DNA of 64,000 bases from an uncultured Bacilli bacterium (GTDB taxonomy: Bacteria > Bacillota_I > Bacilli_A > RF39 > UBA660), in assembly GCA_934153945.1 (NCBI GenBank), contig CAKPFM010000003.1, positions 3,831-67,830 on the forward strand, given 5' to 3'. Made by a program: the position numbers and the translations under genes. The notes beneath the pieces were generated by a model. The model saw only the letters and a program-made list of their open reading frames with translations, did not search any database and was not told where the DNA came from. Positions 8,898-61,762 of this stretch are shown here, piece by piece. The number at the start of each line of letters is the position of its first letter. Positions within the stretch are counted from its first letter, which is position 1.

Positions 8898-9893
8898 TTA
8901 GTCCTTCTTTCTTAATCCTAAAATAATTGCACCTAATATCATTCCAAAATAATATGTTACAAATCTCCATATTAACATTATGGCATTAATTTTGGGTCCA
9001 GTTATAAAATTACCATAAAATGATATAAATCCATATTCTAATCCACCAGTTCCTCCTGGTATTGGTACAAATGCTCCTATTAACATAACATATGCACTTG
9101 TTACTATTACATTAACAATTGATATATTAAGTCCTACACCTTTAATTATAAAATATGGAACTAAATATAATAAAGATAATGATAATAATTGTAACAAAAT
9201 AAGCATTATAAATTTCTTTTTATTTTTTAATAAAATTTTTGCTCCATCATTAAAATCTGATAAATATTTTTCAAATTGATTTATTTTTTCTTCTTTGTTT
9301 TTTATTATTTTTAATTTGGATAATATATTTATTATAAAATTAATTACTACTTTATTTCCTTTTTTAAAATAAGTAATTGAAAATAATACAACTATTACTA
9401 GAAAATTTATAATAAATCCAATTAAAACTAGATTTTTTAGCAAGGTTATATCTGGATACAATTTAAATATATAGTTATAAGTTACAGCAAATATTCCAAG
9501 TAATACTAATGCTGTTTGATATATTATAAAATTTTGAATCGAAATATTAGCTGCATTTATAATGCTGATTCCATCTTTATTTAATCTATATATTTCATAT
9601 GGTTGTCCACCTGTAGCAAATGGAGTTATTGCGTGAAAAAAATTAGTTTCTAAACCCATTCTAAATGACTTCTTTAATGTATAATCTTTTTTAAAATTAT
9701 TTACAACTATTTTCATTATTATACTTTTTATAAATACATATAATATGAATACAATTATAGCTAATAAGAATAATAACAAATTCATATTTTTTATAGTATT
9801 TATTATTTCGATATAATCATTTTTTAGTGATAAATATAATACTAGTATAGTTATTACAATTAGAATTAAAAAATTAATTATGTTCTTTTTCAT
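8898..9893 (-). CDS. flippase-like / lysylphosphatidylglycerol-synthase TM-domain (UPF0104) membrane protein
   Basis: Polytopic protein of about 8 TM helices with the LPG_synthase_TM-like flippase-like pattern. Commonly paired with GT4 glycolipid synthases. Confidence 0.6.
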   Translation of the reverse strand: MKKNIINFLILIVITILVLYLSLKNDYIEIINTIKNMNLLLFLLAIIVFILYVFIKSIIMKIVVNNFKKDYTLKKSFRMGLETNFFHAITPFATGGQPYEIYRLNKDGISIINAANISIQNFIIYQTALVLLGIFAVTYNYIFKLYPDITLLKNLVLIGFIINFLVIVVLFSITYFKKGNKVVINFIINILSKLKIIKNKEEKINQFEKYLSDFNDGAKILLKNKKKFIMLILLQLLSLSLLYLVPYFIIKGVGLNISIVNVIVTSAYVMLIGAFVPIPGGTGGLEYGFISFYGNFITGPKINAIMLIWRFVTYYFGMILGAIILGLRKKD

Positions 9894-19871: not shown

Positions 19872-19886
19872 TTTTTCATCCCCTTT

Positions 19887-22586
19887 TTATAAATGATATA
19901 ATTCATCTTCTATTTCTTCTATTTTTGCTTGTATATCTTTATATTCCCTTGTTTTTGAATATTCAAGAACTCCATAGTGTTTCTTTATTTCAGATTCCTC
20001 TTTACGATATTTATCTAATTCACTAATCAAATATTCTTTTCTTTTTTGTGTTTCTAATTTTTCCTGTTCTTCATTTGGATTTGTTGTATCATTTTCAAGA
20101 TGTTCATTATTTGATTCATTAGCTGATTCAAATAATTGTTCTACAGTTTGATCATCCTGTGGATTATTAATATTTTCAGACTGTCTTTCAGCTGATTGAT
20201 GTGTATTCAAATTATTAGCTTTTTGTCTAAATTCGTTTACTCTTTGTCCTAAAGAATAAATATTACTTGTTTCTGCTTTTAAGTATTCTTGTTTTAAAGC
20301 ATACTCTGCTTTTGCTTTTTGATAATCTGGATTTGTAGGATAATCTTCTCCATAATTTTGAACTGATACGTCTGGGTTTTTAAATGTATTATAAAGTGCA
20401 TCCATTTCCTTTTGTATTTGTTTTACGTTATTATTTTTGCTTGGAATAACAACATTTTCAATATAATCTGCTGCTACTTCTGGATGATCATTATTCATAT
20501 CTTCCCTTTCGTTTTTTAGTGCTGATATTTGTTCTTCATATTTTGAAATATCACTAGATATTTCATTTCTCTTTTCCTGGTCAGTTTCCTTAGAATATTC
20601 TTGCAGTTTTTTTCTCTTGTTCTCTTCTGCATTTTTTATATCTTCTTCAATTTTACTATAATTTTGATAATTTAAATTACCATTATAACTATTTGGATTA
20701 GCTGATTGAGAAGTAGATGAAGGATTACCAACTTGTGATGATGAAGTTTGTATATTTACGTTACCAGTATTAATTCCCAAACTATCCAAAGTTCTATCTG
20801 ATGTTCTATCCAAGTATTCTTTTACTGCACTTTCTACTTCAGCCTCTTTTGTATATTTTTGTTGAATAATTTTATGTCTTTCTTTAACACCATCTAAAGC
20901 TCCTTGAGCTTTATCAACTGCCTCTCTTTTAGCATTGACATTTTTTAATGCTGCATCAAGTTGTTCTTTTGTAGTATTTGGATTTGAATTTAGTCTTTCC
21001 AAATTACTTTGTGCTGCTTGGTATTCATTTTTTGCGTTTTTTAAATTTGTTTTTGCATTGTTTACTCTATTAAATGAATCTTGATATTCCTTATTATTTT
21101 CAAATAATTTTGCTCTCTTTTCTTCATCTATTTGATAATTTCCTTTTTCATCTAGTATATAGTTACCATCTTCATCTGTCTTAAGTATATTTTTAACTAA
21201 ATCTCTACCTTTTTGATTAAACTTATCAAATTTTTGCAATTTTCTATCTGCTTCTTTTTGTTCTTCTTTTTCTTTTTTTCTTTTTTCATAATAAGGTTGC
21301 ATACCAGCACCTAAACCCTTTAATGAGTTTGGTGATTTATATCCACCTTTTAATCCAGATGTAAATGCCTTTCCTGCATTTTCAAATCTTTCTTTGATAT
21401 TATTACCTCTAAAACTTGTTGCCATACCCAAAGTACCAGAAGCTAGTCCTGTTGCGGCTCCAGTTATTTGTTTACCACCGATTGCTTCTTTCTCTAATTT
21501 TTTTAATGGATTTAGAGTAAAGTTTCCACTTAAATCTATATTAAACATCTTCTTCAATATATCTGGTAATTTTTTAGCAAACATTAATGCTCCTAAAATA
21601 AATAGTACAGTTACTCTCATATCTCCTGTTTTACTAAATTCAATTTTAGAAATTAAGAATATGGCAAAATATATGGCAACTAATCTTAAAAATAAATCTG
21701 CCCATGTTGTTCCAACTTCTTTTAACCATTTGCTAAATAAACCTTTCTTTGCAGAACCTGGATCTATATATGAAATAATTGGAATTGGAGCAATTATTTC
21801 AAGAAAAGTTAATTTGATTGTTCGTAACGCTGCATCAAGACAGAACCCAGCAAATATCAAAACGATAATAAGTCCTATAATTGTTGATATAAAATAATTA
21901 TAATCTACATAATAATACTTTTCACCTCTAGATATATGTTCTTTTATAATGCTATCTCTCAATAATTCTTTTATGTTACCTGCTGAACAATAACCACCAG
22001 TTAAAAAACTATTAACCTTTTCAGAATTTGAATCGTCTATATCACTATTTATTTGTATAAATGGTCTAATTGTCATCATAGCGATATATTCGCCAGTACT
22101 TTCAATAATCTCACCAGTATCACTATATTTTTTATGTGGTTTAGTTGAATTATCACATAATGGACTTATAAATAATTCTTGTGTATCATATGTGTTAGTA
22201 TCATCAAGAATAATTCTAGTAAGAAGATGTTCATCTAATATTGCAGATTGAGCATCTCTCAATAAATCAAAAGCAAAAGGGCATAAAATAATTAAAGCAA
22301 AAGTAATAACAACATTTATTATTAACTTTGCTCCCCCTTTTTCCTTATCTGCTATACTATCAGGATTTATTATATAATTGATTATTGAAAATGATATTTT
22401 GAACAACATGAAAATTCCGATAAAAGAATATAACTTGCCTGTTATATTTGATACTGAAGTTTCTTTAATTAATGTCGATTCAGCTAAATTTACTATAATA
22501 TCATATAATGTGCCAATTAAAGAGTATATTCCTGTATCAACTGTAGCAAAAAATCCTCTTAAACCATCATTAAATTTACTGTACAT
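19887..22586 (-). CDS. VirB6-like polytopic membrane protein with a long C-terminal coiled-coil/low-complexity extension (TcpH/ConG/Orf15-like)
   Basis: About 6 TM helices in the N-terminal 400 aa, then an about 500-aa charged coiled-coil region. This architecture matches Gram-positive VirB6 analogues. Confidence 0.55.
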   Translation of the reverse strand: MYSKFNDGLRGFFATVDTGIYSLIGTLYDIIVNLAESTLIKETSVSNITGKLYSFIGIFMLFKISFSIINYIINPDSIADKEKGGAKLIINVVITFALIILCPFAFDLLRDAQSAILDEHLLTRIILDDTNTYDTQELFISPLCDNSTKPHKKYSDTGEIIESTGEYIAMMTIRPFIQINSDIDDSNSEKVNSFLTGGYCSAGNIKELLRDSIIKEHISRGEKYYYVDYNYFISTIIGLIIVLIFAGFCLDAALRTIKLTFLEIIAPIPIISYIDPGSAKKGLFSKWLKEVGTTWADLFLRLVAIYFAIFLISKIEFSKTGDMRVTVLFILGALMFAKKLPDILKKMFNIDLSGNFTLNPLKKLEKEAIGGKQITGAATGLASGTLGMATSFRGNNIKERFENAGKAFTSGLKGGYKSPNSLKGLGAGMQPYYEKRKKEKEEQKEADRKLQKFDKFNQKGRDLVKNILKTDEDGNYILDEKGNYQIDEEKRAKLFENNKEYQDSFNRVNNAKTNLKNAKNEYQAAQSNLERLNSNPNTTKEQLDAALKNVNAKREAVDKAQGALDGVKERHKIIQQKYTKEAEVESAVKEYLDRTSDRTLDSLGINTGNVNIQTSSSQVGNPSSTSQSANPNSYNGNLNYQNYSKIEEDIKNAEENKRKKLQEYSKETDQEKRNEISSDISKYEEQISALKNEREDMNNDHPEVAADYIENVVIPSKNNNVKQIQKEMDALYNTFKNPDVSVQNYGEDYPTNPDYQKAKAEYALKQEYLKAETSNIYSLGQRVNEFRQKANNLNTHQSAERQSENINNPQDDQTVEQLFESANESNNEHLENDTTNPNEEQEKLETQKRKEYLISELDKYRKEESEIKKHYGVLEYSKTREYKDIQAKIEEIEDELYHL

Positions 22587-22601
22587 TTTTTATCACTTCC
22601 T

Positions 22602-23471
22602 TTATCCTAGTATACATCCAATTGCTTTTATACCATCATTAACTTGACTATATTGACTAGTTATGCCACTAATATTTATTAAAATTTGAATAAGAATTGG
22701 AACTAAAATAAATACAATAGCTAGTATTATTCTTTTAGCAAACTTTTCTATTCCTTTTTTCATATCATCGTCTTTTCCAGTAATAACTAACTTAATAAAG
22801 TCTCCTATGCCAAGAACAACAATTAATAAAGGAATTATTATTTTAATATAAGTGTAAATCTTTTTTAAAATACCTATTACATTTGATTCATTGCTTCCAA
22901 GAAATCCACAACTATTGTCAATTGTTTGATCTCTATCATCAGGAACATAAGATTGGTCAACCGATATATATATATTATTATCATATACATATACTGGAGT
23001 TCTATCATGAACTGTGGGACCCTCAGTTGTTGATTCTATATTTAAATTTGTTTTAACTTTCACTGGTAAACATTTTAATTTATTATCAACTTCAAAGTCG
23101 TTATCAGATGGATATTTAAGATTTATGCGCAAAATTTTTTTAACATATCCACATGCCCATGGATTTGCACATACCTTTCTAGTTGCATTTTCACCAAAAA
23201 ACGAATTCTCGTTTGTCTCTATAGTATCATTAATTATTTCATGAACTAACTTACCTTTATTTAAAGATACACTATAATTGAACTTTAAATAAGATTCATC
23301 TTTTGTTATGTTACACGAATATGTACAGCTAAATGAAGCAGTTGAACTATTTATAAGTTCACAATTTCCATCAAAAGTTCCATTGTCTCCAAATTGTGTC
23401 TCGGCTGAAACTCCTTTTATTCCCATAAACATTAATAACATTATAATTAATAATTGTATTGTTTTTTTCAT
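22602..23471 (-). CDS. secreted Cys-containing protein with C-terminal double TM anchor (unknown)
   Basis: Signal peptide MKKTIQLLIIMLLMFMGIKGVSA. Cysteine-containing extracytoplasmic domain. Two C-terminal hydrophobic helices. Confidence 0.4.
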   Translation of the reverse strand: MKKTIQLLIIMLLMFMGIKGVSAETQFGDNGTFDGNCELINSSTASFSCTYSCNITKDESYLKFNYSVSLNKGKLVHEIINDTIETNENSFFGENATRKVCANPWACGYVKKILRINLKYPSDNDFEVDNKLKCLPVKVKTNLNIESTTEGPTVHDRTPVYVYDNNIYISVDQSYVPDDRDQTIDNSCGFLGSNESNVIGILKKIYTYIKIIIPLLIVVLGIGDFIKLVITGKDDDMKKGIEKFAKRIILAIVFILVPILIQILINISGITSQYSQVNDGIKAIGCILG

Positions 23472-23528
23472 ACATAATCATTCCTTTTTAATCAATAGAT
23501 AATTCTACACATACATTATAACATAACA

Positions 23529-23560
23529 AAAAAAAATATGGAATAATAATTCCATATTTT
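23529..23560 (-). terminator. strong intrinsic terminator/attenuator between the 118-aa gene and the downstream T4SS genes
   Basis: Perfect 12-bp inverted repeat aaaatatggaat/attccatatttt with a 4-nt loop. On the minus strand it is followed by UUUUUUUUUGUU. Confidence 0.6.
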
Positions 23561-23573
23561 AATTTAAAATATA

Positions 23574-23930
23574 TTATTTTCCACAATCTTCAGCGTTAGA
23601 TACAAAGCATGAGATACATGAAGATATATTGCCACTATCTGTAGCACCAGTATTACTTAAAGCACTAAATAATAATTGTACTACAGAAACAACTAAGAAT
23701 ACTAAAACTGCATAAATAACTCTTTTAATTAATTTAGATTGTGATTCCTTCATTTGTTTTTCATCATTGCCCATAACTGCTTTTGATAAATCAATCATTC
23801 CCATGATGATTAATATAATTGGTACAGCAATTTTAATTAAATTAACTACTAAAACTGTAATTTGTGGAATTAATAGTGTATTTGCATCCCAAGTAATTCC
23901 GCCAATAGTACATCTTAACACTTCTAACAT
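23574..23930 (-). CDS. small membrane protein, possible pilin-like structural subunit (VirB2/TrbC-like?)
   Basis: 118 aa with two hydrophobic helices and a Cys-rich C-terminal tail (SSCISCFVSNAEDCGK). AGGAGG RBS. Followed immediately by a strong terminator, as is usual for high-copy pilin genes. Confidence 0.35.
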   Translation of the reverse strand: MLEVLRCTIGGITWDANTLLIPQITVLVVNLIKIAVPIILIIMGMIDLSKAVMGNDEKQMKESQSKLIKRVIYAVLVFLVVSVVQLLFSALSNTGATDSGNISSCISCFVSNAEDCGK

Positions 23931-24013: not shown

Positions 24014-25015
24014 TTAAAATAATCCTAAAATAGATTTCTTTTTATCTTGATCATCACCTGTTAATTTAGTAAAACCAAGTTTAATTAAGAATGAATTTAG
24101 TTTTAATAAATTTTTATTTCTTTCATCTAAAGGTGGTAAATTATAATATATTTTTAATCCTGATTCATATTCGAAATCTGATACATCTTTTGATTCAAGT
24201 AAACTTTGATTCAAAATTACTTTTTTATCTTTCAATGTTTTAAATACCCCACCGTTTACCAACATCAATTTATTTAATTTAATAACTGATGGTTCTATTA
24301 AATATATAACATCATGACATAAATTTTCTGCTTGATTAGAATCATTCAAATCAACCAATATTGCATCATGATCCGAATACTTAGCAATAACATTTCCAAT
24401 TTCTGTATTAGTAGTTGAAACTAATTCTTTATCATTGAAATATCTAAAATCACTTTTATTTACTTCAATGGCAACAACAGAATAATCTTGTTTTAATTGA
24501 TTTTTGATCATATAAGTTAAAGTTGTTGCCCCTGATTGCTTAGTAACATTTTTTATTCCGATAATTTTAGGGCCAGTAGGAACTGTATTCTCATACTTTT
24601 CTACTATTACCGGTTGTTCTTGAACTGGTGTTATATCTAATTGTTGAATATGAGCTACATCTCGATATGTATTAGGATTATTATACAAATATAAAATTCC
24701 TTCAGCATTTTTTGTGAAATTATAAATACCCATTGATATTAACTTCGATAGATATGCATTTGTACCATCATCCACAGTATCATCTATTAACAATATTAAT
24801 TTGTCCATATCTAATGAGATTGATAATTTTTGAATTGTTCTAATATCACGATAATTTTTAATTGCAGTAATATCTAATATCATTTTTTGATAGAAAAAAT
24901 TTTGAAATTGATTCACTATCTCCTCTACTTCAAATTCCCCATTTAGAGTCTTTATAACCTCTATGTCTAAAGATTCTAACATTGCTTGATATTTATTAGA
25001 AATGACTACGTTCAT
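24014..25015 (-). CDS. TadZ/CpaE-like pilus-assembly protein (ParA/MinD-like fold with degenerate Walker A)
   Basis: Receiver-like N-terminal half. IIGIKNVTKQSGATTLTYMI sits where the deviant Walker A (GxKGGxGKT) would be. A later DAILVDLND block follows. Position next to the pilin and ATPase genes matches Tad loci. Confidence 0.45.
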   Translation of the reverse strand: MNVVISNKYQAMLESLDIEVIKTLNGEFEVEEIVNQFQNFFYQKMILDITAIKNYRDIRTIQKLSISLDMDKLILLIDDTVDDGTNAYLSKLISMGIYNFTKNAEGILYLYNNPNTYRDVAHIQQLDITPVQEQPVIVEKYENTVPTGPKIIGIKNVTKQSGATTLTYMIKNQLKQDYSVVAIEVNKSDFRYFNDKELVSTTNTEIGNVIAKYSDHDAILVDLNDSNQAENLCHDVIYLIEPSVIKLNKLMLVNGGVFKTLKDKKVILNQSLLESKDVSDFEYESGLKIYYNLPPLDERNKNLLKLNSFLIKLGFTKLTGDDQDKKKSILGLF

Positions 25016-25027
25016 AAGTTCCCCTCC

Positions 25028-25486
25028 CTATCTTAGTAATCCATTGATTTTAGTTTCACCATATACAGGGAATCTAAGTTCAACTCCTATTACTGGAATT
25101 TGGTAATACATATATGCAGTAACCCCATAATATGTACCTTTATTAGTGGAATAAGCATATATGCAATATTCATAATTTGATGTTAATTTTTTATTGACAG
25201 CATCTACACCATTACGAGCTGGACAATTATTAGGATTAGTACTAATTCTATATCCAGCAGTATTTAAAACATTGTTAATTTCTGATTCAACAGTACTATT
25301 TAAGCCTGTTGAGTCAGCAACATTTACACCTAAAATATCATCATATTTTTCTAATATTTCAACTATTTTGTTTTTCACTTTAAAAGCTTTTGTATAACTA
25401 GAAGAAGTCGCAAATAGAATTATAAATATTGCGACAAATGTAATAACTAAACCAAATACAAAGGCATTTCCTATTGCTTCTTTCAT
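25028..25486 (-). CDS. pilin-like protein with MKEAIG leader (TadE/TadF-like minor pilin candidate)
   Basis: MKEAIG|NAFVFGLVITFVAIFIILF has a short polar leader ending in Gly, then a hydrophobic helix. Two Cys (NCPARNG...YEYCIYAY). Paralog of 25496-25951. Confidence 0.5.
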   Translation of the reverse strand: MKEAIGNAFVFGLVITFVAIFIILFATSSSYTKAFKVKNKIVEILEKYDDILGVNVADSTGLNSTVESEINNVLNTAGYRISTNPNNCPARNGVDAVNKKLTSNYEYCIYAYSTNKGTYYGVTAYMYYQIPVIGVELRFPVYGETKINGLLR

Positions 25487-25495
25487 TTAATCACC

Positions 25496-25951
25496 CTAAT
25501 CTGTGAAATGGAAAATTTTTTCTGTTTCAGAGTATACTGGAAGTTTAAAATCAAAACCAAATGGTAAATCAACAAATATATATGTCAACACACCATAATT
25601 ATAGTATTTAGTTTTATTATCACCATATTGATAATAATCATATTCATAAATACAATAATAATGTTTTTTTGTTCCTCCAGCAAGTGCTGTTACAGCCTGT
25701 TTTCCATTTTTTGTTGGGCATTCAAAACTACCTGGTTCAGCAATACGATAACCAATTGAAGTTAACGTATTTGTAATTTCTCTATCAGATAGAATATTAT
25801 AACCCTCATGATTTTCTAACTCTTTTGCTATTCTTCCATTTACTTTAAAAGCTTTCATATAACTCAGTGTTGCTGCCAAGAAACCGAAAGTCAAAACAAT
25901 GAAAACTATTATAATATTATACATTGGAATACTTCCAATTGCTTGTTTCAT
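25496..25951 (-). CDS. pilin-like protein with MKQAIG leader (TadE/TadF-like minor pilin candidate)
   Basis: MKQAIG|SIPMYNIIIVFIVLTFGFL. Conserved C-terminal block shared with its neighbour (FKLPVYSETEK vs LRFPVYGETK). Two Cys. Confidence 0.5.
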   Translation of the reverse strand: MKQAIGSIPMYNIIIVFIVLTFGFLAATLSYMKAFKVNGRIAKELENHEGYNILSDREITNTLTSIGYRIAEPGSFECPTKNGKQAVTALAGGTKKHYYCIYEYDYYQYGDNKTKYYNYGVLTYIFVDLPFGFDFKLPVYSETEKIFHFTD

Positions 25952-25966
25952 ATTAACACCTACCCA

Positions 25967-26158
25967 CTATGCTGCGTAATCAACTTTATCGCATTGACCT
26001 GTTGAACTATTCCAAGTTCCACCATTATCCATACATTCAGCTCTTTTTTTAGTATTATTCATCATACTATTAATGATTGGTGTAGCAACCGCTACAATAA
26101 CGCCAATTAAGATAATAGTTACAACAGTCATGTTTGCTTCTCCAGCTGCTTCTTTCAT
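25967..26158 (-). CDS. Flp-type (type IVb/c) prepilin candidate, 63 aa
   Basis: MKEAAG|EANMTVVTIILIGVIVAVATPI has the same leader as the two downstream pilin-like genes. Very short, with a C-terminal Cys pair (C42/C56) that could form a disulfide loop. 130-nt upstream intergenic region. Confidence 0.5.
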   Translation of the reverse strand: MKEAAGEANMTVVTIILIGVIVAVATPIINSMMNNTKKRAECMDNGGTWNSSTGQCDKVDYAA

Positions 26159-26271
26159 ATATTCACCACCTTACAATATCTAATTTCACACTATTAGTAT
26201 AACACTATTTGTTATTTTTATCAAATATTATTGTAATATTTTACTATATATTTACATTTTTTATAATTAAA

Positions 26272-26293
26272 AAGCAACATATTAGTGTTGCTT
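26272..26293 (-). terminator. possible terminator overlapping the tadC-like stop, upstream of the flp-like gene
   Basis: 8-bp inverted repeat aagcaaca/tgttgctt with a 6-nt loop, followed by a U-rich tract on the minus strand. Confidence 0.35.
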
Positions 26294-27078
26294 TAAAAAT
26301 TCATCATTTGCATCATTGAATATAATAGAAGTAATAATATACCAATACCTGTTGTTGTAAGCATTGCCATAGTTTTACTTTCCATTTTATCAAGACGTTC
26401 TTTATATTTTTGTTCACGTGCTTTATTTTGTAGTGTTGAAACTGTTCTTGAGAATAAAAGTAATTGTTCTTGTTTATTTTCTTGTGATCCTAAACCTAAA
26501 CGATATAAAAGTCTCATCATTCTCATTGAATCTCTAACCGGATATTCTTTAGCAAAATCCATATATGGATCTACTGTAGAAATACCAGCTTCTATTTTAT
26601 CTACTAAAGTAACTAATCCACTTTTGAATATTTCTGGAGCAGTTTCTATTGATTTTCTTAAAGCTACAGGAACAGTATAATGTTGAATTAATATTTCCAA
26701 ACTTTTTAAATAGTATGGTAACATTTGATCAATTTTATTTAAATTAGCTTTGTAATATTTTTGTAATTGAGTATAAGGTAATTTAAATACTAAATATCCA
26801 ATTATAAATGAAATTAATAAATTCATAAAACTAAAATTTGAAAGTAAGAAAACAAATACTAAAACTATAATAGTTAAGACACCATTTCTTACACGTTGTC
26901 CAAATAATTTGTTTACATCGATATCTGATCCATATTTAACACTAAGTAAAAATTTGTAATCATCTTCCATTAAAAATCTAAAATAAGGTTCTGTTTCACC
27001 AATGAATTTTTTAGTATCAATTCTTTTAGTATATTCAAGTATAAATAATATAATAATCGCTATTAAAATAAATTCCAT
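26293..27078 (-). CDS. TadC-like (GspF-family) inner-membrane pilus platform protein
   Basis: N-terminal TM, central cytoplasmic domain, two C-terminal TMs. Paralogous with the adjacent gene (both begin MEFI...). Confidence 0.55.
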   Translation of the reverse strand: MEFILIAIIILFILEYTKRIDTKKFIGETEPYFRFLMEDDYKFLLSVKYGSDIDVNKLFGQRVRNGVLTIIVLVFVFLLSNFSFMNLLISFIIGYLVFKLPYTQLQKYYKANLNKIDQMLPYYLKSLEILIQHYTVPVALRKSIETAPEIFKSGLVTLVDKIEAGISTVDPYMDFAKEYPVRDSMRMMRLLYRLGLGSQENKQEQLLLFSRTVSTLQNKAREQKYKERLDKMESKTMAMLTTTGIGILLLLLYSMMQMMNF

Positions 27079-46686: not shown

Positions 46687-47622
46687 TTACTTTATATTTT
46701 CAATTTCCCTCCAATTACTTGGAAAACCTATTTTATTTAAGATTAATTCTAATGGTACAGTATCTACTTTGCCATCTAAAATATCTATTTCATAACCTAT
46801 TTCAAATATTAATTCATTAAATTCTTCTATTCTTAGCATTTGTTTCATAATAATTATAACTGCGAATAAATCATTCTTACCATAATCATATTCATCATCA
46901 GTCATTTCAATTCCTAATTCAAAGTGATATCTTGTATCTGGAATTACTCTTTGAGTTCTATGATCATATAATATATCTTCATGAGCACACAAATTTCTAA
47001 AATTAGCTAATAAAGATAAATAAATTGATAAAGTATCTGGATCTAAATTGTATATTTCTGCTATGGCAATTTGATCTTCTATTTTTAATATGTTATATAA
47101 TTCAGATATTATACCAAAAGATAAAACTTTTACTAAAATCCACATAGGTATATATCCATAGTTACTTAAGTAGTGCATTGTGGCAGCATGTTGTTTACCA
47201 TTAACTCTAATTTGTCTTTTCATTTTATTTATTACATCATATACTTGTCTATTTTTTAATTTATCTTGTGTAAAATTTTTAGGATTTAAATAATCTTTTT
47301 CTTTAAAACCATATTTCTTAGATAAAGTATAACTAAATATTGATTTAACATTGTTTTCAATTATTAATAAATGTTTAAACATTATATTTCTTAGATTTCT
47401 ATCAAATTGAAAGGTTGAGTATAATTCATCAAAAGTAGTACCTTTTATAAAAGTACTATCTTTAAAACTTTTCATAAATAAATGTCTATATCCACTTATA
47501 AAAAAGTAATTTTCTCTAAATAATATTTCCTTTGCTTTTTCTTCATCTTCTATTATTAAACCTTTATTTTTTAATATTTCTACTTGTTCATCTAATGTTT
47601 TAAATGTTTTTGTTTTTTTCAT
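46687..47622 (-). CDS. Abi_2-family abortive-infection protein (AbiD/AbiF-like)
   Basis: N-terminus LDEQVEILKNKGLIIEDEEKAKEILFRENYFFISGY is the hallmark of the Abi_2 (pfam07751-type) family. Confidence 0.75.
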   Translation of the reverse strand: MKKTKTFKTLDEQVEILKNKGLIIEDEEKAKEILFRENYFFISGYRHLFMKSFKDSTFIKGTTFDELYSTFQFDRNLRNIMFKHLLIIENNVKSIFSYTLSKKYGFKEKDYLNPKNFTQDKLKNRQVYDVINKMKRQIRVNGKQHAATMHYLSNYGYIPMWILVKVLSFGIISELYNILKIEDQIAIAEIYNLDPDTLSIYLSLLANFRNLCAHEDILYDHRTQRVIPDTRYHFELGIEMTDDEYDYGKNDLFAVIIIMKQMLRIEEFNELIFEIGYEIDILDGKVDTVPLELILNKIGFPSNWREIENIK

Positions 47623-47673
47623 GCTATCACCTATTATAGTAATTATATCATTAAATATTCAAGTTGTGAATTA

Positions 47674-48333
47674 TTAATCATTAAAATATGAAATAATAGC
47701 ATTAGTAATAGTATCAGATATTTTATTTTGATAACTTTCTTGTTTTAGTAAATACCTATCATTTGAATTACTTAAAAAACCTAATTCTAATAATACGCCA
47801 GGTCTATCAATCCTCTTAAGCAAATATAAACTATTATCTACTTTTGCTTTTCTCGTACTATTTAAATTTTTCTTAAAATATTTTTGAATTGTTTCAGCTA
47901 TTTTTTTATTTTTTTCTAATTTATCATTATAGAATACTTGAGCACCTCTCCATACACCTGTTTCTTCAGCATTTAAATGAATTGATATAAATAAATCACA
48001 GCCACTTTTATTTATTAAATTACCTCTTCTTGATAAATCACTTCTTTTATTATTAATTGTATTTGTTACTGATAAATCATAATCATCATATCTTGTTAAG
48101 TATACAATAGCACCTTTTTTTAATAAATTTTGTTCTATTTTTTTACTTATTTCTAAGTTAATATCTTTTTCTAATATATCTTTATACATAGCACCGGGAT
48201 CATTACCACCATGACCACTATCTATGTAAATAACTTTTCCCATTAGAGGAAACTCATTATTTGAAGCATATACATATTGTGTAGCAAATAAACATATTAA
48301 GAATAACAAAAAAACACATATTTTATAGCGCAT
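47674..48333 (-). CDS. cwlD: germination-specific N-acetylmuramoyl-L-alanine amidase
   Basis: Signal peptide plus an Amidase_3 domain (IYIDSGHGGNDPGA ... SIHLNA). Conserved position downstream of rplM-rpsI, as in Bacillus. Confidence 0.75.
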   Translation of the reverse strand: MRYKICVFLLFLICLFATQYVYASNNEFPLMGKVIYIDSGHGGNDPGAMYKDILEKDINLEISKKIEQNLLKKGAIVYLTRYDDYDLSVTNTINNKRSDLSRRGNLINKSGCDLFISIHLNAEETGVWRGAQVFYNDKLEKNKKIAETIQKYFKKNLNSTRKAKVDNSLYLLKRIDRPGVLLELGFLSNSNDRYLLKQESYQNKISDTITNAIISYFND

Positions 48334-48423
48334 ATTTTTTCACCTATTAAAATATATGTTTTTTTATTTTATTCATTACTTTCCCATCTAGCATATATAT
48401 ACTATTTATACTTGTTACAAAAT

Positions 48424-49611
48424 TTATTTATTCATTAGCCAGTCTAGAACATTTATTTTTCTTATTCCATTATAATCTACTTCTGGATCTATATCCATTG
48501 TTAGTATAAATTTTGGATAATGATCATTTATGCTTTCTAGTGCTGATAACTCTCTTTCTAAAGTACTCTTATCTCTTACTGTATAAGCAACTTGATAATA
48601 AATTATACCATTACTATTTTCAGCAATAAAATCAATTTCTTTATCTCCTGATTTTCCAATATAAACCTTATATCCTCTTCTTATTAATTCAATATAAACT
48701 ATATTTTCTAATATATGACCTAAATCAATATATTTTCTTCCTATTAAAGCATATCTCATTGTAACATCAGTAGCATAATATTTTTCACCAGTTTGTAAAT
48801 ATTGTTTCCCTTTTATATCATATCTAGATACCTTATTAAAAATATAACTTTCGACTAATGCATCTAAATAACTTTCGACGGTATGAACAGATATGTTCCT
48901 ACCATTTGATGTTAATGTATCTGCTATTTTTTTTATAGATAAAATATTACCTACGCTAGAAAACATAAATTCAGATATACTTTTCAAAATACCAGTATCA
49001 GATATTTTTTTTCTAGTAGCAATATCTTTTACTATTATAGTGTTATAAATACCATCTAAATATTTATCTATTTCATTTTGATCATCAAGTTTTAATGCAT
49101 ATGGCATAGAACTATTATTTATATATTTTAAATATAATTTTTCATCACCATCTTGTTTATAATAATTAGCATATTCTTTAAAAGATAATGGAAACATTTT
49201 TAATTCTACATACCTGCCAGACAATAAAGTAGCTAATTCACCAGACAATAAATATGCATTCGACCCAGTTATATATTCATCAACATTCTTTTTTATATAT
49301 AAACCATCTACTGCTTTTTCAAATTTATCTACAACCTGTACCTCATCTAAAAAAACATAATACATACCAGTATCAATTATTTTATTATTAACATAATTAT
49401 AAAGTTCCATGTAATTTTCAAAATTATATTCTGGAGATTCAAGATTTAATGATATTATATGGTCTTCATTAACACCTATTTCTTTTAAATATTCTATATA
49501 TAATTCAAATAAAGTTGATTTTCCACATCTTCGTATTCCTGTTATTACTTTTATTAAATCCTTATCTTTCCATTTTTTTAATTCATTCAAATAGTCATTT
49601 CTTTCTATCAT
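48424..49611 (-). CDS. AAA-family ATPase (AAA_14 + DUF4143 type)
   Basis: Walker A GIRRCGKST and Walker B VFLDEVQ. Architecture of the widespread DUF4143 ATPase family. Confidence 0.65.
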   Translation of the reverse strand: MIERNDYLNELKKWKDKDLIKVITGIRRCGKSTLFELYIEYLKEIGVNEDHIISLNLESPEYNFENYMELYNYVNNKIIDTGMYYVFLDEVQVVDKFEKAVDGLYIKKNVDEYITGSNAYLLSGELATLLSGRYVELKMFPLSFKEYANYYKQDGDEKLYLKYINNSSMPYALKLDDQNEIDKYLDGIYNTIIVKDIATRKKISDTGILKSISEFMFSSVGNILSIKKIADTLTSNGRNISVHTVESYLDALVESYIFNKVSRYDIKGKQYLQTGEKYYATDVTMRYALIGRKYIDLGHILENIVYIELIRRGYKVYIGKSGDKEIDFIAENSNGIIYYQVAYTVRDKSTLERELSALESINDHYPKFILTMDIDPEVDYNGIRKINVLDWLMNK

Positions 49612-56399: not shown

Positions 56400-57900
56400 A
56401 AATGACCTATATTAGATCCCTTTCTATTTATATTTTTTATATAACTTTTTAGGGTTATAATATTTAAGCACTGTGGATTTGTATCTATAATACTCCGGCT
56501 TTGACTGGTTTGAGGTGACAACTACCACAGGCTTTTATTTTTATTGGTAATTAGTTAGTTAACGCATTGACGTTTTATATCCTACGTGAATCCATAAATA
56601 GAAGTACCTGTGTCAAAACATACAGTGCATTAATACTAATTAGGAGGTGTTTTTATGTATTTTGTTGGTATTGATATTTCAAAATACAAGCATGACTGTT
56701 TCATTTGTACTGAAACAGGTGTAGTAATTGAAGAAAATTTATCCTTCCAAAACACCAATGAAGGATTCAATCAATTACTTAATTTATTAAATTCTCTAGA
56801 TAATAATCATGAAATTAGGATAGGATTTGAAGCTACTGGTCATTATGGTATGAACCTTAAGCTATTCCTTGAAAAGAACAACTATTCTTTTATGGAATTT
56901 AATCCTGCTTTGGTCAAGCAATTCATCAAAGGTCAAACCCTTAAAAGAACTAAAACAGACAAGAAAGATGCATTCCAAATTACCAAGTATCTTATGTCTG
57001 TGGATTACAAATCCCATCCAAATCAATTTTATCACAAATTTTCTTTAAAATCTCTATCTAGAAAAAGAGATAAATTAATTACTCAACGTTCATACTATTT
57101 GAATCAAATAACCAATATTTTGGATTTGATTTTTCCAGAGTTTAAACCTTTATTTGATAATGAGTTTTCTGTCACATCTCTTTATATTTTGAATAAATAT
57201 AAAACTCCTGATAAAATCAAAAATATGAAAGACTTTGATTCTATTAATAAAGTTGCTAGAGGCAAATTTTCTTATGCTAAATTTTTAAAAATCAAAGATG
57301 CTGCTAAAAATACTATTGGTCAATCTGATGATTATTTAGAATTTGATTTTCAAAATATGCTTGACCTTTACAATAATATTAATTCTACAATCAAAAAATA
57401 TGATGATAAAATTGAAGCAATTATTAAAGAACTTAATCCTCCAACTCTTTCTATTAAAGGAATTGGTCCTATTTCATGTGCAGCTATTATTTCTGAATTC
57501 GGTGATGTTTCTAGATTTAAATCTGCTGACGCTATGGTTGCTTTTGCTGGTATTGAACCTAGTATTTCGGAATCCGGAACAGAACAACATGATGGTAAAA
57601 TGGTTAAACATGGTTCTGGTCATTTAAGATATCATCTTTTAAATGCTGCTGATTATGTTTTTTTACATGAATCTATATTCACAGAATTCTATTATAAAAA
57701 ACGTAATGAAGGTAAGACTCATAGAGTTGCCTTATCTCATGTTGCTAAAAAACTTGTTAGAATTATTTATAAATTAGAATCTGAAAATATCACTTTTAAA
57801 TCTGATATAAAATAATTGGTGTATTATTTTATATTTTCATAATATTGCAACATAAAGTTTTAAAAATTGTTATTTTTAAAACCTTTTTGGTGTGGAATAA
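56400..57900 (+). mobile_element. IS110-family insertion sequence (approximate boundaries)
   Basis: Intact IS110-type transposase gene preceded by an about 250-nt leader that is more GC-rich than its surroundings. IS110 elements lack terminal inverted repeats, so the ends cannot be fixed from this sequence. Confidence 0.55.
56655..57815 (+). CDS. IS110-family transposase
   Basis: N-terminal DEDD domain (YFVGIDISKYKHD...GFEATGHY). C-terminal Transposase_20 region (GIGPISCAAIISEFGDVSRF). AGGAGG RBS. Confidence 0.9.
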   Translation: MYFVGIDISKYKHDCFICTETGVVIEENLSFQNTNEGFNQLLNLLNSLDNNHEIRIGFEATGHYGMNLKLFLEKNNYSFMEFNPALVKQFIKGQTLKRTKTDKKDAFQITKYLMSVDYKSHPNQFYHKFSLKSLSRKRDKLITQRSYYLNQITNILDLIFPEFKPLFDNEFSVTSLYILNKYKTPDKIKNMKDFDSINKVARGKFSYAKFLKIKDAAKNTIGQSDDYLEFDFQNMLDLYNNINSTIKKYDDKIEAIIKELNPPTLSIKGIGPISCAAIISEFGDVSRFKSADAMVAFAGIEPSISESGTEQHDGKMVKHGSGHLRYHLLNAADYVFLHESIFTEFYYKKRNEGKTHRVALSHVAKKLVRIIYKLESENITFKSDIK

Positions 57901-58057
57901 AATTCTTTTTAAGATTTTTAATTAAAATGACTTGACTTCTTATAGTTAGTCACCTCATGTACATAATATAACACAACTAATAAGTAAAATACAAATTTTT
58001 TTATTTACTAATACATTTTAAATTACATTATGTTATAATACTAATCGAGGTGATTAA

Positions 58058-59708
58058 CTTGAAAAAATTATTTATAGTAATTTTCATAATTTTCAGTATA
58101 AATGTAAAAGCGTATACCAGTAGTGATGCTGAATACAATCATGGATATATCATGCCAGATTTATATAATACTGGATACACATCTAGTTTTGATGAATTAG
58201 TTGATATAGAAATAAAATATCCCGATATAAATTGTTATTCAGGGCTATGTGATATAAATAAGAAGTTTATTGAAAAATATGGTTCTATTATTGATGGATT
58301 TAAAACTGATAAAATGATAAGAATAAATGCTGTAGATAATGTTACAATTAAAAACTTTTATATTAACAACAATACTTGGTATGGTATTAATGTTGTAGCC
58401 TATAATGGTGATAAATATCCTGAAAATATTTTAATTGAAAATGGCGAAATAATGGGTACTAAAGCTGCTGCTATTAACGGAAGTAATATTACAGTAAAAA
58501 AAATGTATATTCACGACTATGGTAATGATGCATTCAAAATTGGTAGTAATCAATATATTATTTCAAATTATATAACTAGTGGTGGATTAGGAGATGGAGC
58601 TCATGCTGATGGTGCTCAATTAAGTTTTGGTCCTATTAATAATGTCAATTTTTTTGGAAATAGATTTGATATGATCGGATTTAATTCAATTGATGGTAAA
58701 AAATATAAAGCAAATGCTATTTTCTTTTTATCATTAGAAAAAGGAGATGCAAGTAATATAAATATTAAATATAATTGGATTAATGGTGGCGGATATACTG
58801 TATATTTTGCTGAAGCCGAAAATTCCAATTTAAGTAATATTACATTTCAAGAAAACATTATTGGAAATGGATATAGATTCGGATATTATTGTAATAATTA
58901 TAATAAATTAATAAATGGTTATGATACGCAAATTTATATGGATGATGTTAATTTACCAAATATTGGTAGCATTGTATATTTAAATAATAATTCAATAATT
59001 AATAATTTAGATAAAGTTAATAATCAAATAAAGGTTATTGTAAATAGTTCTAACTATACTTCAAATGAACAAATAATATTAGTCAAGGTAGAATTATATG
59101 ATTATAACAATAAACTAATAAGCAGTAAAAAACAAACTACAACATTGATAAAAAATATGAAGGGAAAAGAATTTGCTAATAAACAAAATATATCATTTAA
59201 TATGTTTCCAAAAGATATTAAAACAACACTAACAATTGATTTACCAAACGACATTAATGGGTATTATATTAAAACTACAGCATATAAAAATGATGAAAAC
59301 GGTACAATTTTAAGAACTAGTAAAATAATTAATACAAAACCCGGCAATATTAAAAGCACTGAAAATGTAAATAATAAACAAAATAATGCAAATATTAAAA
59401 ATGAAGAAAACAATAATGTTAATAATGTAAACAATAAACAAAATAATACAAATATTAAAAATGAAGAAAACAATAATGTTAATAATGTAAATAATAAATC
59501 AGAAGAAATAAAATCTAATAATAACACAAATGAAAATAATGTAATTGATAATTCTAATCTAGAAGCTAATAATGATAAAACAGATAACAAAGAAATGATA
59601 ATAAATGAAACAAATAATAATATTGATATAGATTTAATAGGAATTATAATAATTGCTTTTATAGAAATTTGTGTAGCAATCATAGTTATAATAAAACATA
59701 AGAAATAA
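58058..59708 (+). CDS. surface protein with right-handed parallel beta-helix (pectin-lyase-fold) domain, Asn-rich tandem repeats and C-terminal TM anchor
   Basis: Signal peptide MKKLFIVIFIIFSINVKA, likely from the TTG at 58058 (GAGGTG RBS). Beta-helix repeats (NGSNITVKKMYIHDYGNDAF...). Two 20-aa repeats NVNNKQNNxNIKNEENNNVN. C-terminal hydrophobic helix plus KHKK. Confidence 0.55.
59364..59498. repeat. 60-nt tandem repeat, about 2.25 copies, inside the beta-helix surface protein gene
   Basis: Near-identical 60-nt units beginning aatgtaaataataaacaaaataat..., differing at only a few positions. Confidence 0.7.
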
Positions 59709-59785
59709 AGTTAATGCTTTATTTTTTTAGTTGATAAAAAATAAATTTTATGTTATTATAACTTACTAATTAAGGGGTGTATTAC

Positions 59786-60448
59786 ATGGAAGATGTAATT
59801 AAAGATGCAAAATATTGTTTAAATATAATCAATGGATTCATTGATGGTAGAAGAAATTTTGGAAAAATATATAGAAATACTAATGAAAATTTATCTAAAA
59901 TTTTTTCAAACTATAATTTTGAAAATAAAAATGTTTTAAGTGTTCTAGCATCAGGCGATCAAGTATTTTCAAGTTACTATTTAGGGGCTAATAATGTTGA
60001 TACATTTGATTCAAATATACTGACATATTATTATTTTTTTCTAAAAAAATGGACTATTTTAAAAACTAGTAAAACATATATTCCAGCATCTAATAAAGAA
60101 CTATTAGAAATCATTAAATTACATGATAATAGTGAGGAAGAAATTAATGCATCATATTTTTGGAAATATACACTTTTAAATATTAACACTTCATTATATT
60201 ATTCAGAATTATTTTATAAAGGTCTTGCTCTATATAAATTACCATATGAAAATGATATAAATAATCTAAAAAAAATTATTATAAATAAAAAGCCAAATTA
60301 TAATAACTTCGATTTATTTAAACCAATAAATACTAATAAAAAATATGAAATAATTATTTTATCAAACATGTTGGAATACTTATATGATAATGAAGAAAAT
60401 AAAAAAATATATAATATTACAGCTAGTAATATATATAATTTATTATAA
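59786..60448 (+). CDS. hypothetical protein (about 220 aa)
   Basis: AAGGGG RBS 7 nt upstream of the ATG at 59786. The track's GTG start at 59777 overlaps the RBS. No motif. Confidence 0.4.
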   Translation: MEDVIKDAKYCLNIINGFIDGRRNFGKIYRNTNENLSKIFSNYNFENKNVLSVLASGDQVFSSYYLGANNVDTFDSNILTYYYFFLKKWTILKTSKTYIPASNKELLEIIKLHDNSEEEINASYFWKYTLLNINTSLYYSELFYKGLALYKLPYENDINNLKKIIINKKPNYNNFDLFKPINTNKKYEIIILSNMLEYLYDNEENKKIYNITASNIYNLL

Positions 60449-60612
60449 GAAAATGGAATAGCCATATCATCAAACATTATTGATTACAATTATCAAGGAA
60501 ACAAAATATTTGAAAAACATCTAGAATACATTGAGGGACCACTTGATAAAAACAATATATACAATAAAAATAAACCAATATGTTATGTTTATAAGAAAAG
60601 GAAAAATAAGTA

Positions 60613-61731
60613 ATGAAATTAGAAGATTATATAATTATTGCAAAATTAATAAATGAAAAAAAATATAATGATATATATGTAAGGTATGGAAAGCAATGTT
60701 TTCTAGATTTTACTTCATATAGTTATCAAAAAGAAGAACTTAATAATTTATTAAAAAATGGCAGGTTTTTAGATATATATGAAAAATATAGTACTAGTAC
60801 TTATAATAAATATCTTAAAAAAATGACAAAAATTGACATTAAAAATGAGTTGGGAAAAAATTCGATTAAATACATTATCTTCGAAAATTTAAAAAATAAA
60901 TTAAGATTAATAAAACAAAATACAGTTATTGGACTAGCTACACTATCGACGATTTCAATTTGTTTAGCAGCAGAAATATCAACAAGTTTTGATACAATTA
61001 TAAATAATAATTCTATTAAATATGAAAATGAAATAAATGATTATAACCAAGAAATAAAAGAATATGCTGAATACATTAAATCTTTAAAATTGAGTGATTT
61101 AGAAACAATTATAAAAGTAATTAATGATATGTGGTCTAATATTGATGGATACAAAACTCCTGATGACTATGATATAATAGGATACCATAGATTATCACTT
61201 TATATTGATGGATATGGAGTATGTAGAAATATGGCAGATGATTTTACTGCACGTATTAATGCTATAAACCCGGATTATGAAGCATGTAACTTTTATGTAT
61301 ACATAAGCAATTCTGAATTAAATGATATTGAAAGAAATATCATTAATGAAAATGATACTGTAATGCAAATCGATTCAGAAAATAAAAACAATTATATAAA
61401 TGAATTTAGTAAAAAAATAATCGGTAATCATTTAGTCACTTGTATGAAAATAAAAAATGACAATGCTATACTTATAGTAGATCCAACTAATCCATCAATA
61501 GGTTTATATCAAAATGGTAAAACATACATGTTTAATAATACAATTGATGGAATAGAAAATAAACCAGTGGGAAATATATTATCTGGAATTAAAAATAGAA
61601 TTAACTATTTAAAAAAACTAAAAGATAGTTATATTATAAATAGTAATTATGATTATTTAAACAAAAAATATAATATAGAAAATCAAAATAAGGCATTAAA
61701 AAAAATTAAAGAATATTCTAATAATAAATAA
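60613..61731 (+). CDS. hypothetical protein with internal TM helix (372 aa)
   Basis: ORF followed by a hairpin terminator. Hydrophobic segment VIGLATLSTISICLAAEI. Confidence 0.4.
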   Translation: MKLEDYIIIAKLINEKKYNDIYVRYGKQCFLDFTSYSYQKEELNNLLKNGRFLDIYEKYSTSTYNKYLKKMTKIDIKNELGKNSIKYIIFENLKNKLRLIKQNTVIGLATLSTISICLAAEISTSFDTIINNNSIKYENEINDYNQEIKEYAEYIKSLKLSDLETIIKVINDMWSNIDGYKTPDDYDIIGYHRLSLYIDGYGVCRNMADDFTARINAINPDYEACNFYVYISNSELNDIERNIINENDTVMQIDSENKNNYINEFSKKIIGNHLVTCMKIKNDNAILIVDPTNPSIGLYQNGKTYMFNNTIDGIENKPVGNILSGIKNRINYLKKLKDSYIINSNYDYLNKKYNIENQNKALKKIKEYSNNK

Positions 61732-61760
61732 AAACCTCCAATAAGGTTTTTATTTTTATA
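61731..61760. terminator. bidirectional terminator between convergent genes
   Basis: aaaacc-tccaataa-ggtttt hairpin followed by a T-run. Confidence 0.5.
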
Positions 61761-61762
61761 TT

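Follow-up and report, generated by a model that had tools for sequence, protein, structure and literature searches.

Three conserved pilin-like genes with a short shared putative leader in a Tad-like and type IV secretion block of uncultured gut Bacilli

The Tad/Flp (type IVc) loci of monoderm bacteria, such as those of Bifidobacterium breve, Clostridioides difficile BI1 and Bacillus thuringiensis, encode in order an assembly ATPase, two membrane proteins, a Flp-sized pilin and two proteins of ~150-200 residues with an N-terminal transmembrane helix. Here, we describe three adjacent pilin-like genes (the trio) that lie in the same order in a 64,000-nucleotide stretch of DNA (the window) from an uncultured Bacilli bacterium of the RF39 lineage (contig CAKPFM010000003.1 of assembly GCA_934153945.1). 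An earlier note, made from the letters of the window alone, had described the trio as pilin-like genes whose products show the layout of class III (Flp/TadE/TadF-type) signal peptides, and had remarked that no prepilin peptidase is encoded nearby. Its observation is correct and its interpretation partly supported; it missed that the trio belongs to a conserved block of ~24 kilobases (kb), at window positions 11686-35973, which couples a Tad-like gene set with the genes of a type IV secretion system (T4SS). The reading that we favor, with a probability of roughly 0.5, is that the trio encodes subunits of an unrecognised Tad-like pilus within a T4SS cluster, and that their leader is cleaved by an A24 prepilin peptidase encoded at a distance.

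The likeness to monoderm Tad loci extends to a weakly matching CpaB-like protein encoded upstream, the lack of a secretin, pilins that are without a strict G↓xxxxEY motif (the arrow marks a known or putative cleavage site) and escape the Pfam Flp and TadE models, and a peptidase that may be encoded elsewhere. The tad locus of B. breve reportedly reads tadZ-A-B-C-flp-tadE-tadF, with tadV located elsewhere. In contrast to the comparison loci, where leaders of ~13-35 variable residues end in polar-polar-Gly, the putative leaders in the window are 5-6 residues long and are themselves conserved (MKEAxG). The block also differs in that its platform proteins are without a Pfam T2SSF match, no A24 gene lies nearby in any relative, its possible TadZ analogue has a degenerate P-loop and is encoded after the pseudopilins, and the whole set is joined to a T4SS cluster.

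Gram-positive conjugation systems are generally described as pilus-less, relying on adhesins. As judged by sequence, the ATPase region of the block parallels genes 36-41 of the plasmids pLS20 and pXO2, around the 'VirB11' gene 37. The best plasmid matches of the block ATPase, at 28-31% identity, are in the pLS20 family and in Enterococcus faecium, pXO2/pAW63-type and pXO1-type Bacillus plasmids. As in the block, pLS20-like, pXO2 and E. faecium plasmids encode a DUF5411-like protein before the ATPase (Pfam E=1.4e-5 on a pLS20 gene-36-like protein; also 1.3e-3) and two membrane proteins after it, which are matched by hidden Markov models (HMMs) of the 301- and 261-residue families of the block. 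In pXO2 (2.4e-6), a Bacillus mycoides plasmid (4.2e-6), an E. faecium plasmid (2.2e-5) and a pLS20-like plasmid (8e-4), the HMM of the 261-residue family matches the second of the membrane proteins that follow the ATPase. There follow a ~120-residue protein with an N-terminal transmembrane helix, 47-50-residue proteins with one transmembrane helix and, further on, a VirB2-like protein, VirD4, a pLS20_p028/TrbL-like protein and VirB4. Unlike the trio, the small plasmid proteins start MLDQN... or MQENN... (MLDQNADRMYWVIG..., MQENNVSRIVYLIG...) and have no Gly site, and unlike the block, the plasmid stretches examined have no annotated CpaB-like gene. Furthermore, these plasmids carry MOBP relaxases, whereas the block lies on the chromosome and is without a recognisable relaxase or integrase. 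The paper on the pLS20 family assigns no function to genes 36 and 38-41 and reports the absence of pilus homologues (PMC8557374), and a 2025 review of T4SSs mentions neither pLS20 nor Tad (PMC12857230).

A DUF5411/CpaF/PilC operon of Roseburia, Ruminococcus and Eubacterium has been predicted to be secretion-related (Miller et al. 2022, PMC9523054). As described, it resembles the block in that DUF5411 and a large surface protein are encoded with an ATPase of the CpaF type and a PilC/GspF-like membrane protein, its other genes being without recognisable pilus homology; it differs in belonging to Clostridia and in coming with no pilin candidates, leader analysis or stated T4SS link. Our literature search found no paper on the pilin families of the trio or on a Tad-like reading of pLS20 genes 36-41. 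The IncI plasmid R64 encodes its own peptidase, PilU. The thin pilus of R64 and the pilus of PAPI-1 are like the present locus in that a type IV filament module, which supports mating, lies beside VirB4/VirD4 transfer genes, and unlike it in being type IVb pili of diderm bacteria with classical prepilins (PMC12857230).

The trio and its Tad-like gene set

The three open reading frames (ORFs) of 63, 151 and 152 residues, all on the minus strand, lie where the earlier note had placed them (Table 1), and each has a Shine-Dalgarno-like sequence 4-6 nucleotides 5' of its ATG (AAGGTGGTG, GGGTAGGTG and TAGGGTGAT). Their N-termini (MKEAAGEANMTVV, MKQAIGSIPMYNI and MKEAIGNAFVFGL) begin with the MKEAAG, MKQAIG and MKEAIG starts reported in that note and run directly into the hydrophobic helix of ~20 residues that it had described (mean Kyte-Doolittle hydropathy of 2.1-2.8 over residues 8-27). 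This pilin-type arrangement is conserved in 83 related loci from roughly 80 species, whose called ORFs are the basis of all residue counts per family given below. A relaxed start motif (^M[KR][EQD][ASG].[GAS]) fits 5 of the 806 possible starts in the window, and the only fits that are real gene starts with a hydrophobic stretch next are the three genes of the trio, all adjacent. The start motif shared by the trio is not a chance match.

Other features of the proteins were equally as described. The C-terminal Cys pair of the 63-residue protein, C42 and C56, is invariant in its family, together with M1, E3, G6, E7, A8, N9, T11 and P27, and the 151- and 152-residue proteins are paralogs with 35% identity, two invariant Cys residues and a conserved C-terminal PVYGET block. 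We found 668 homologues of the 63-residue protein, 67-95% identical among the matches listed, and its gene is present in 253 GTDB species genomes; for the 152-residue protein, a word-indexed search returned 191 homologues and a profile search 1440 representative clusters. None of the three families, of up to 1440 representative clusters, is covered by a Pfam or NCBIfam model. The few named homologues and most of the genome records go under uncultured Bacilli, Tenericutes/Mollicutes, 'Candidatus Coprosoma' or 'Firmicutes bacterium CAG:822', and gut samples are their main source.

The genes around the trio support a Tad-type layout, as the trio sits where flp-tadE-tadF sit, downstream of a T2SSE ATPase. 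The 359-residue protein is an assembly ATPase of the GspE/PilB/TadA type; it scores with both the VirB11 model TIGR02788 (E=3.4e-32) and the TadA-family model TIGR03819 (E=1.1e-27), in each case below the cut-off, and its best match in the PDB is CpaF (70.5 bits), next to Cag-alpha/VirB11 (69 bits). The 301-residue protein has the predicted fold of a GspF/PilC/TadB-C integral-membrane platform, in a model with a predicted local distance difference test score (pLDDT) of 63 that was built from a less diverse alignment. Pfam T2SSF was detected in neither the 301- nor the 261-residue protein, and hhalign between the two families did not show a TadB/TadC-like paralogy. The CpaB/RcpC-like protein scores below the cut-offs of both models that match it (33.9 bits against 71 for TIGR03177; 25.1 bits against 28.8 for PF16976). 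In the 333-residue protein, the P-loop was aligned by hhalign with the motif KGGTGSST of Sinorhizobium meliloti CpaE, at a score that is not significant (E=0.065), and on its sequence this protein is a possible TadZ/CpaE analogue. The locus has two of the defining parts of a type IV filament machine, an ATPase and a platform, in Tad gene order.

Two Firmicute Tad loci were fetched as a control for the profile searches described below. An A24 peptidase is encoded within the locus of C. difficile BI1 (L144), together with cpaB, an AAA ATPase, an assembly ATPase and TadB-like genes; its small pilin reads ..AGEDG↓MELLQ, and its two larger proteins read KNG↓MVFIEF and NNDG↓SIAILG. On the pXO1-type B. 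thuringiensis plasmid NZ_CP114400.1 (L142), three tandem 67-residue pilins (..SSENG↓MLIALAV) accompany cpaB, an AAA ATPase, CpaF and two membrane proteins, with no A24 gene in the 11 kb examined. These three tandem genes (L142:7954-8706) are annotated only as hypothetical, and WxL surface proteins are encoded after them. The pilins of the two loci lack a strict G↓xxxxEY motif, most of them being without Glu at +5, and the pilin and pseudopilin tested from these loci have no Pfam Flp or TadE match. The order of an ATPase, two membrane proteins, a small pilin and two pseudopilin-sized proteins is the same in both loci as in the window, and this counts in favor of the trio encoding pilus subunits. 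So does the position of the 63-residue gene, which follows a terminator-like hairpin and has a promoter-like site of its own (Table 1); across the region, 3 terminator-like sites were found where 0.6 were expected, and the total of promoter-like sites is not above the shuffled expectation.

Some relatives show variations on the trio. In the related loci L053 (10053-12524, plus strand) and L080 (10992-13424, minus strand), and also in L052 and L074, a gene for a YfhO-family membrane glycosyltransferase (PF09586, E=1e-127) separates the pilin gene from the pair of pseudopilin genes, which hints at pilin glycosylation in these lineages. In L080, three pilin-like ORFs occur in tandem (9407-10820), and the copy number differs among relatives.

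Leader, peptidase and rival explanations

In the 63-residue family, the N-terminus follows the pattern M-K-E-A-A-G-E-A-N-[LM]-T-V-V, with Gly at position 6 in 77 of 86 called ORFs; the non-Gly cases are mostly ORFs called from an upstream alternative codon before the same MKEA motif. The 151-residue family follows M-[RK]-[EQ]-[SGA]-I-G (Gly at position 6 in 77/81), and the 152-residue family follows M-[KR]-E-[AS]-I-x-N, where position 6 (n=77) is Gly in 39, Ala in 30, Ser in 5 and Asn in 3, so that small residues (G, A and S) dominate. A fourth family of the locus, DUF5411, starts MKESFW[G/A/L/S] and shares E3 with the trio. The trio leader resembles no more than the last few leader residues of Flp/TadE prepilins (..RNESG↓ in S. 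meliloti); the leader of the Caulobacter prepilin ends ..KDESG↓. The distance from the putative site to a TadE-like motif (xFGRAF/SYTKAF) is +22 in TadE and +24 here, in an alignment that is not significant. The class III signal-peptide layout proposed in the earlier note stands as far as the short N-terminal stretch and the hydrophobic helix are concerned, Gly6 being near-invariant in two families. It falls short in that no class III profile matches, Glu is lacking at +5 and about half of the 152-residue family carries Ala, Ser or Asn in place of Gly6; cleavage after Gly6 is therefore no more than plausible.

The lack of an A24 peptidase in the 64 kb was borne out by a Pfam scan of the window ORFs of >=100 residues (a few ORFs overlapping longer genes or at the window edge being excluded), by phmmer and by a motif scan, all of which were negative, and no Peptidase_A24 was found in the 10 kb beyond either window end. 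The related loci were searched by phmmer with two A24 seeds and by a motif scan with a pattern loose enough to take in the KGGDIR motif of the C. difficile enzyme, and both positive controls were recovered. That no A24 peptidase lies nearby is thus a constant trait of the system. It is nevertheless ordinary: several systems commonly share one prepilin peptidase whose gene lies apart from theirs, all MSH loci are without one, and tadV can be located separately (Denise et al. 2019, PMC6668835).

The classical G↓FTLVE prepilin gene that the earlier note had pointed out elsewhere in the window has the textbook motif, though its N_methyl match is below the Pfam cut-off (Table 1). In relatives, this gene adjoins pgk, even where it is apart from the block (L115), with 38-49% identity and an intact KKGFTLVEL. 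Most relatives have no classical prepilin after the rhodanese gene at the end of the block, where housekeeping genes are found instead; as a part of the block this prepilin was rejected, since it travels with pgk. No com or pil assembly genes were found in the window. The retention of the canonical KKGFTLVEL prepilin in diverged relatives suggests that a host A24 enzyme exists and, on this sequence evidence, that these genomes encode a conventional one.

Taken on context, size, N-terminal architecture and conservation, the products of the trio are likely to be pilins. In the favored reading, the 63-residue protein would be the major subunit and the 151- and 152-residue proteins the minor subunits of a divergent Tad-like (type IVc-like) filament. 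This filament would be assembled by the products of the upstream genes, namely the CpaF/VirB11-family ATPase, the GspF/PilC-like platform with its second membrane partner and the CpaB-like protein, with the DUF5411 protein and the degenerate P-loop protein as possible participants. As the pilus module is one half of a block whose other half is a Gram-positive T4SS, the filament would most likely serve cell-to-cell contact or substrate transfer by that system. The M-[KR]-[EQ]-[ASG]-x-Gly start would most likely be a very short class III-type leader, cut behind residue 6 by an A24 enzyme whose gene lies at a distance, probably the same one that matures the GFTLVE prepilin. Of this picture, the gene order, the ATPase family, the platform fold, the conserved N-terminus and the lack of a nearby peptidase are shown by the data, whereas filament formation, cleavage, the identity of the peptidase and the link to transfer are deduced from them.

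Several observations weigh against this reading, and some of them bear on whether the proteins are pilins at all. The match to Flp/TadE/TadF-type HMMs that the earlier note had proposed to look for was not obtained: at E<=0.1, the trio is without a Flp_Fap, TadE, N_methyl or NCBIfam pilin match. No PDB sequence match was found, and the searches tied neither the 261-residue protein to TadC nor the 333-residue protein to TadZ. The predicted structure of the 152-residue protein (pLDDT 76), in which an N-terminal helix of 46 residues is joined by another helix and a sheet of three strands, gave no significant Foldseek match; PDB profile searches with the 301-, 261-, 333-residue, DUF5411 and 152-residue families gave nothing meaningful; and hhalign gave no significant score against S. 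meliloti TadB, TadC, TadE and CpaE or against proteins of E. faecium plasmids. Some of these alignments are colinear with known motifs, such as TadE EFGRAFYVRN against SYTKAFKVKN, and are leads only. The failure of the profiles and of Foldseek would fit an alternative in which the trio encodes single-pass proteins with uncleaved signal anchors, placed in the T4SS channel or in a wall-spanning scaffold, while the ATPase acts as a VirB11. This alternative also draws on the ATPase scoring as well with VirB11 as with CpaF, on the block having VirB2-like T4SS_pilin proteins of its own and on the treatment of pLS20 genes 36-41 as secretion components, without pilus homologues, in the pLS20 paper (PMC8557374). 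However, the profile failure is weak evidence against pilins, because the C. difficile locus, which has its own A24 peptidase, and the B. thuringiensis locus fail as well. A GspF/PilC-like platform, moreover, is without a known role in VirB-type secretion systems, the CpaB-like protein, the extremely conserved Flp-sized protein and the Tad gene order speak for a filament, and in two relatives (L052 and L053) the Tad-like half runs into hpf and secA with no VirB4 half adjacent. We consider it improbable that the trio does not encode pilins.

The remaining points against the favored reading concern the leader and its peptidase, and most of them would be expected if the pilins were never processed, with M-K-E as the mature N-terminus and the near-invariant Glu3 in place of the classical Glu5, so that no prepilin peptidase is needed. 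No A24 peptidase was found within ~10 kb of a pilin or VirD4 gene in ~130 related loci (2.09 Mb). The start position is fixed, as all full-length matches among the best 150 of the 1440 representative clusters begin at residue 1-2 and none of them has a longer leader. K2 and E3 are conserved at least as well as Gly6, more than is usual for a discarded leader, and E3 is kept in DUF5411, where position 7 is G, A, L or S. Position 6 is Ala, Ser or Asn in 38/77 loci of the 152-residue family, positions -2 and -3 carry hydrophobic or small residues in place of polar or charged ones, no Glu is found at +5 (across the 83 loci, the three families have Thr, Tyr or Phe at position 11), and the small counterpart proteins of pLS20, pXO2 and the E. 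faecium plasmid are without any Gly-type site. Yet the near-invariant Gly6 of the 63- and 151-residue families is hard to explain without a specific role for position 6, a retained Lys2 would have to leave the membrane and end buried in the filament core, and the C. difficile Tad locus, with similar pilins, carries an A24 peptidase. To our knowledge, every characterised type IV filament system uses such a peptidase. Unprocessed pilins are therefore a doubtful reading, although it ranks second, and cleavage by a distant A24 enzyme is the most likely single one. A further idea, that the leader is cut by a non-A24 protease encoded in the block, for example the 527-residue polytopic protein, is very unlikely. 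It appeals to the several conserved membrane proteins of unknown function that are always co-located with the trio and to the four or five N-terminal transmembrane helices of the 527-residue protein, with an invariant Asp131 in a hydrophobic segment; however, it is purely speculative, as no block protein has a protease-like motif or family match. The 527-residue protein was considered as a hidden peptidase and set aside, no catalytic-type motif having been found in it.

The block, its relatives and the rest of the window

Table 1. Features of the block and of the neighboring classical prepilin gene (window positions)
Feature	Position	Strand	Remarks
Classical prepilin-like gene	11067..11606	-	MKKG↓FTLVELL; GA-like domain (PF22775, E=2e-4); N_methyl E=0.0029
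Type IV secretion half of the block	11686..23930	-	By falling coordinate: two T4SS_pilin-like (118 and 289 residues), TrbL/VirB6-like (899), 107 residues, 185 residues (TraC-like), VirB4-like (594), SpoIID+CHAP hydrolase (839), 204 residues, VirD4 coupling protein (675), rhodanese (98)
333-residue protein	24014..25015	-	Degenerate ParA/MinD-like P-loop (KNVTKQSGATTL); no Pfam or PDB match
Putative minor pilin or pseudopilin, 152 residues	25028..25486	-	Start MKEAIG↓N...
Putative minor pilin or pseudopilin, 151 residues	25496..25951	-	TadE/TadF position; start MKQAIG↓S...
Putative major pilin, 63 residues, Flp-sized	25967..26158	-	MKEAAG↓EANMTVVTIILIGVIVAVATP..., C42-C56 pair; without a real Pfam/NCBIfam match
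Promoter-like site, extended -10	26196..26224	-	TTGATA-17-TG-TATACT; just upstream of the 63-residue pilin gene; consensus match only
Terminator-like hairpin and T-run	26271..26294	-	Directly after the stop of the 261-residue gene, before the 63-residue pilin gene
Polytopic membrane protein, 261 residues	26293..27078	-	TadC position; no Pfam match
Polytopic membrane protein, 301 residues	27078..27983	-	GspF/PilC-like platform (TadB position)
CpaF/VirB11-family secretion ATPase, 359 residues	27994..29073	-	PF00437 (T2SSE), E=2.9e-25, above cut-off
CpaB/RcpC-like protein, 275 residues	29076..29903	-	Weak: PF16976, E=1.7e-5; TIGR03177, E=1.9e-8
DUF5411 protein, 133 residues	29909..30310	-	PF17424, E=4.7e-54; MKES start, then transmembrane helix
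Upstream conserved block genes	30322..35973	-	527-residue polytopic, 214-residue (signal peptide and C-terminal anchor), 1119-residue Cys-rich secreted; no Pfam matches

The secretion half of the block is supported by Pfam matches to AAA_10/TraG P-loop, T4SS-DNA_transf (E=6.3e-56), TrbL_4 (weak) and CHAP with SpoIID models. It brings together VirB4, VirD4, a cell-wall hydrolase and a VirB6-like protein, the composition of a monoderm conjugative T4SS of the pLS20-like kind. At least 253 species of uncultured gut Bacilli share the block. Its gene order is kept in essentially every related locus extending far enough, the genes for the 527-, 214- and 1119-residue proteins are present in most of these, and the block always ends with the VirD4 and rhodanese genes. 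Two complete chromosomes that carry it are of ~1.5 Mb, and OZ007022.1 and OZ007038.1 are examples of complete genomes with the block.

No relaxase or integrase/recombinase was recognised at window positions 11067-35973 or beside the block in relatives, unrecognised families being possible. The flanks of the block are housekeeping genes that vary by species, with ecfA here and pflAB, scpAB or glmM elsewhere, and the identity of the core block proteins tracks or exceeds that of pgk (VirB4 at 95, 93 and 79% versus pgk at 87, 80 and 71%). With no relaxase or integrase found and core divergence tracking pgk, a recently acquired mobile element is not supported; the block appears to be a chromosomal system of long standing and not an element that has moved recently.

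Individual parts of the block vary among relatives. In L052 and L053 (~14400-18400), the Tad-like half, from the gene for the 527-residue protein through that for the 118-residue protein, is directly followed by hpf and secA, and the VirB4/VirD4 half is not adjacent. The T4SS_pilin-like 118-residue family is present in 4-6 copies in some relatives (L054, L059 and L080), downstream of the gene for the 333-residue protein. The 1119-residue secreted protein (window 30322-33681) is Cys-rich and highly variable, with a C-terminal motif, ..YRTISL..PFP...G..PG.NW.., that is kept and is common to a 947-residue counterpart in L003; this secreted protein is possibly the equivalent of the 'internalin-like' surface protein reported by Miller et al. 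(PMC9523054).

The window as a whole has a G+C content of ~25% and includes spo0A, with cotJ spore-coat genes just outside it. An IS110-family transposase gene at window positions 56655-57815 is also present in the contig L141 and is absent at the matching position of the otherwise syntenic L140, which suggests a recent insertion polymorphism. Beside it, four consecutive ORFs of 552, 223, 372 and 305 residues (window 58050-62680) have no Pfam match and are annotated differently in L140 and L141. At window positions 46687-49611, an amidase gene separates an Abi_2 abortive-infection-like gene from a nearby gene for an AAA_14/DUF4143 ATPase, and this region may be a small defence islet.

Implications

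The interest of the locus lies in its unusual leader and in what it implies for Gram-positive transfer systems, and not in the missing peptidase. The conserved MKEAxG start probes how far recognition by prepilin peptidases stretches, or whether such a peptidase is dispensable. That the core proteins diverge no faster than pgk suggests an important, long-held function. To the 'VirB11' ATPase of these systems, the locus adds a GspF/PilC-like platform, a CpaB-like protein, a Flp-sized protein and two pseudopilin-sized partners, and it is therefore a testable proposal that this class of secretion systems includes a Tad-like filament. A more far-reaching version, which we regard as unlikely, is that the trio represents the filament subunits of an unrecognised branch of type IV filaments in Gram-positive conjugation-type systems, including genes 36-41 of pLS20 and pXO2, in which the leader is absent or vestigial and assembly is independent of a peptidase. 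If this were true, a large class of Gram-positive transfer systems that are thought to be pilus-less would make a Tad-like pilus.

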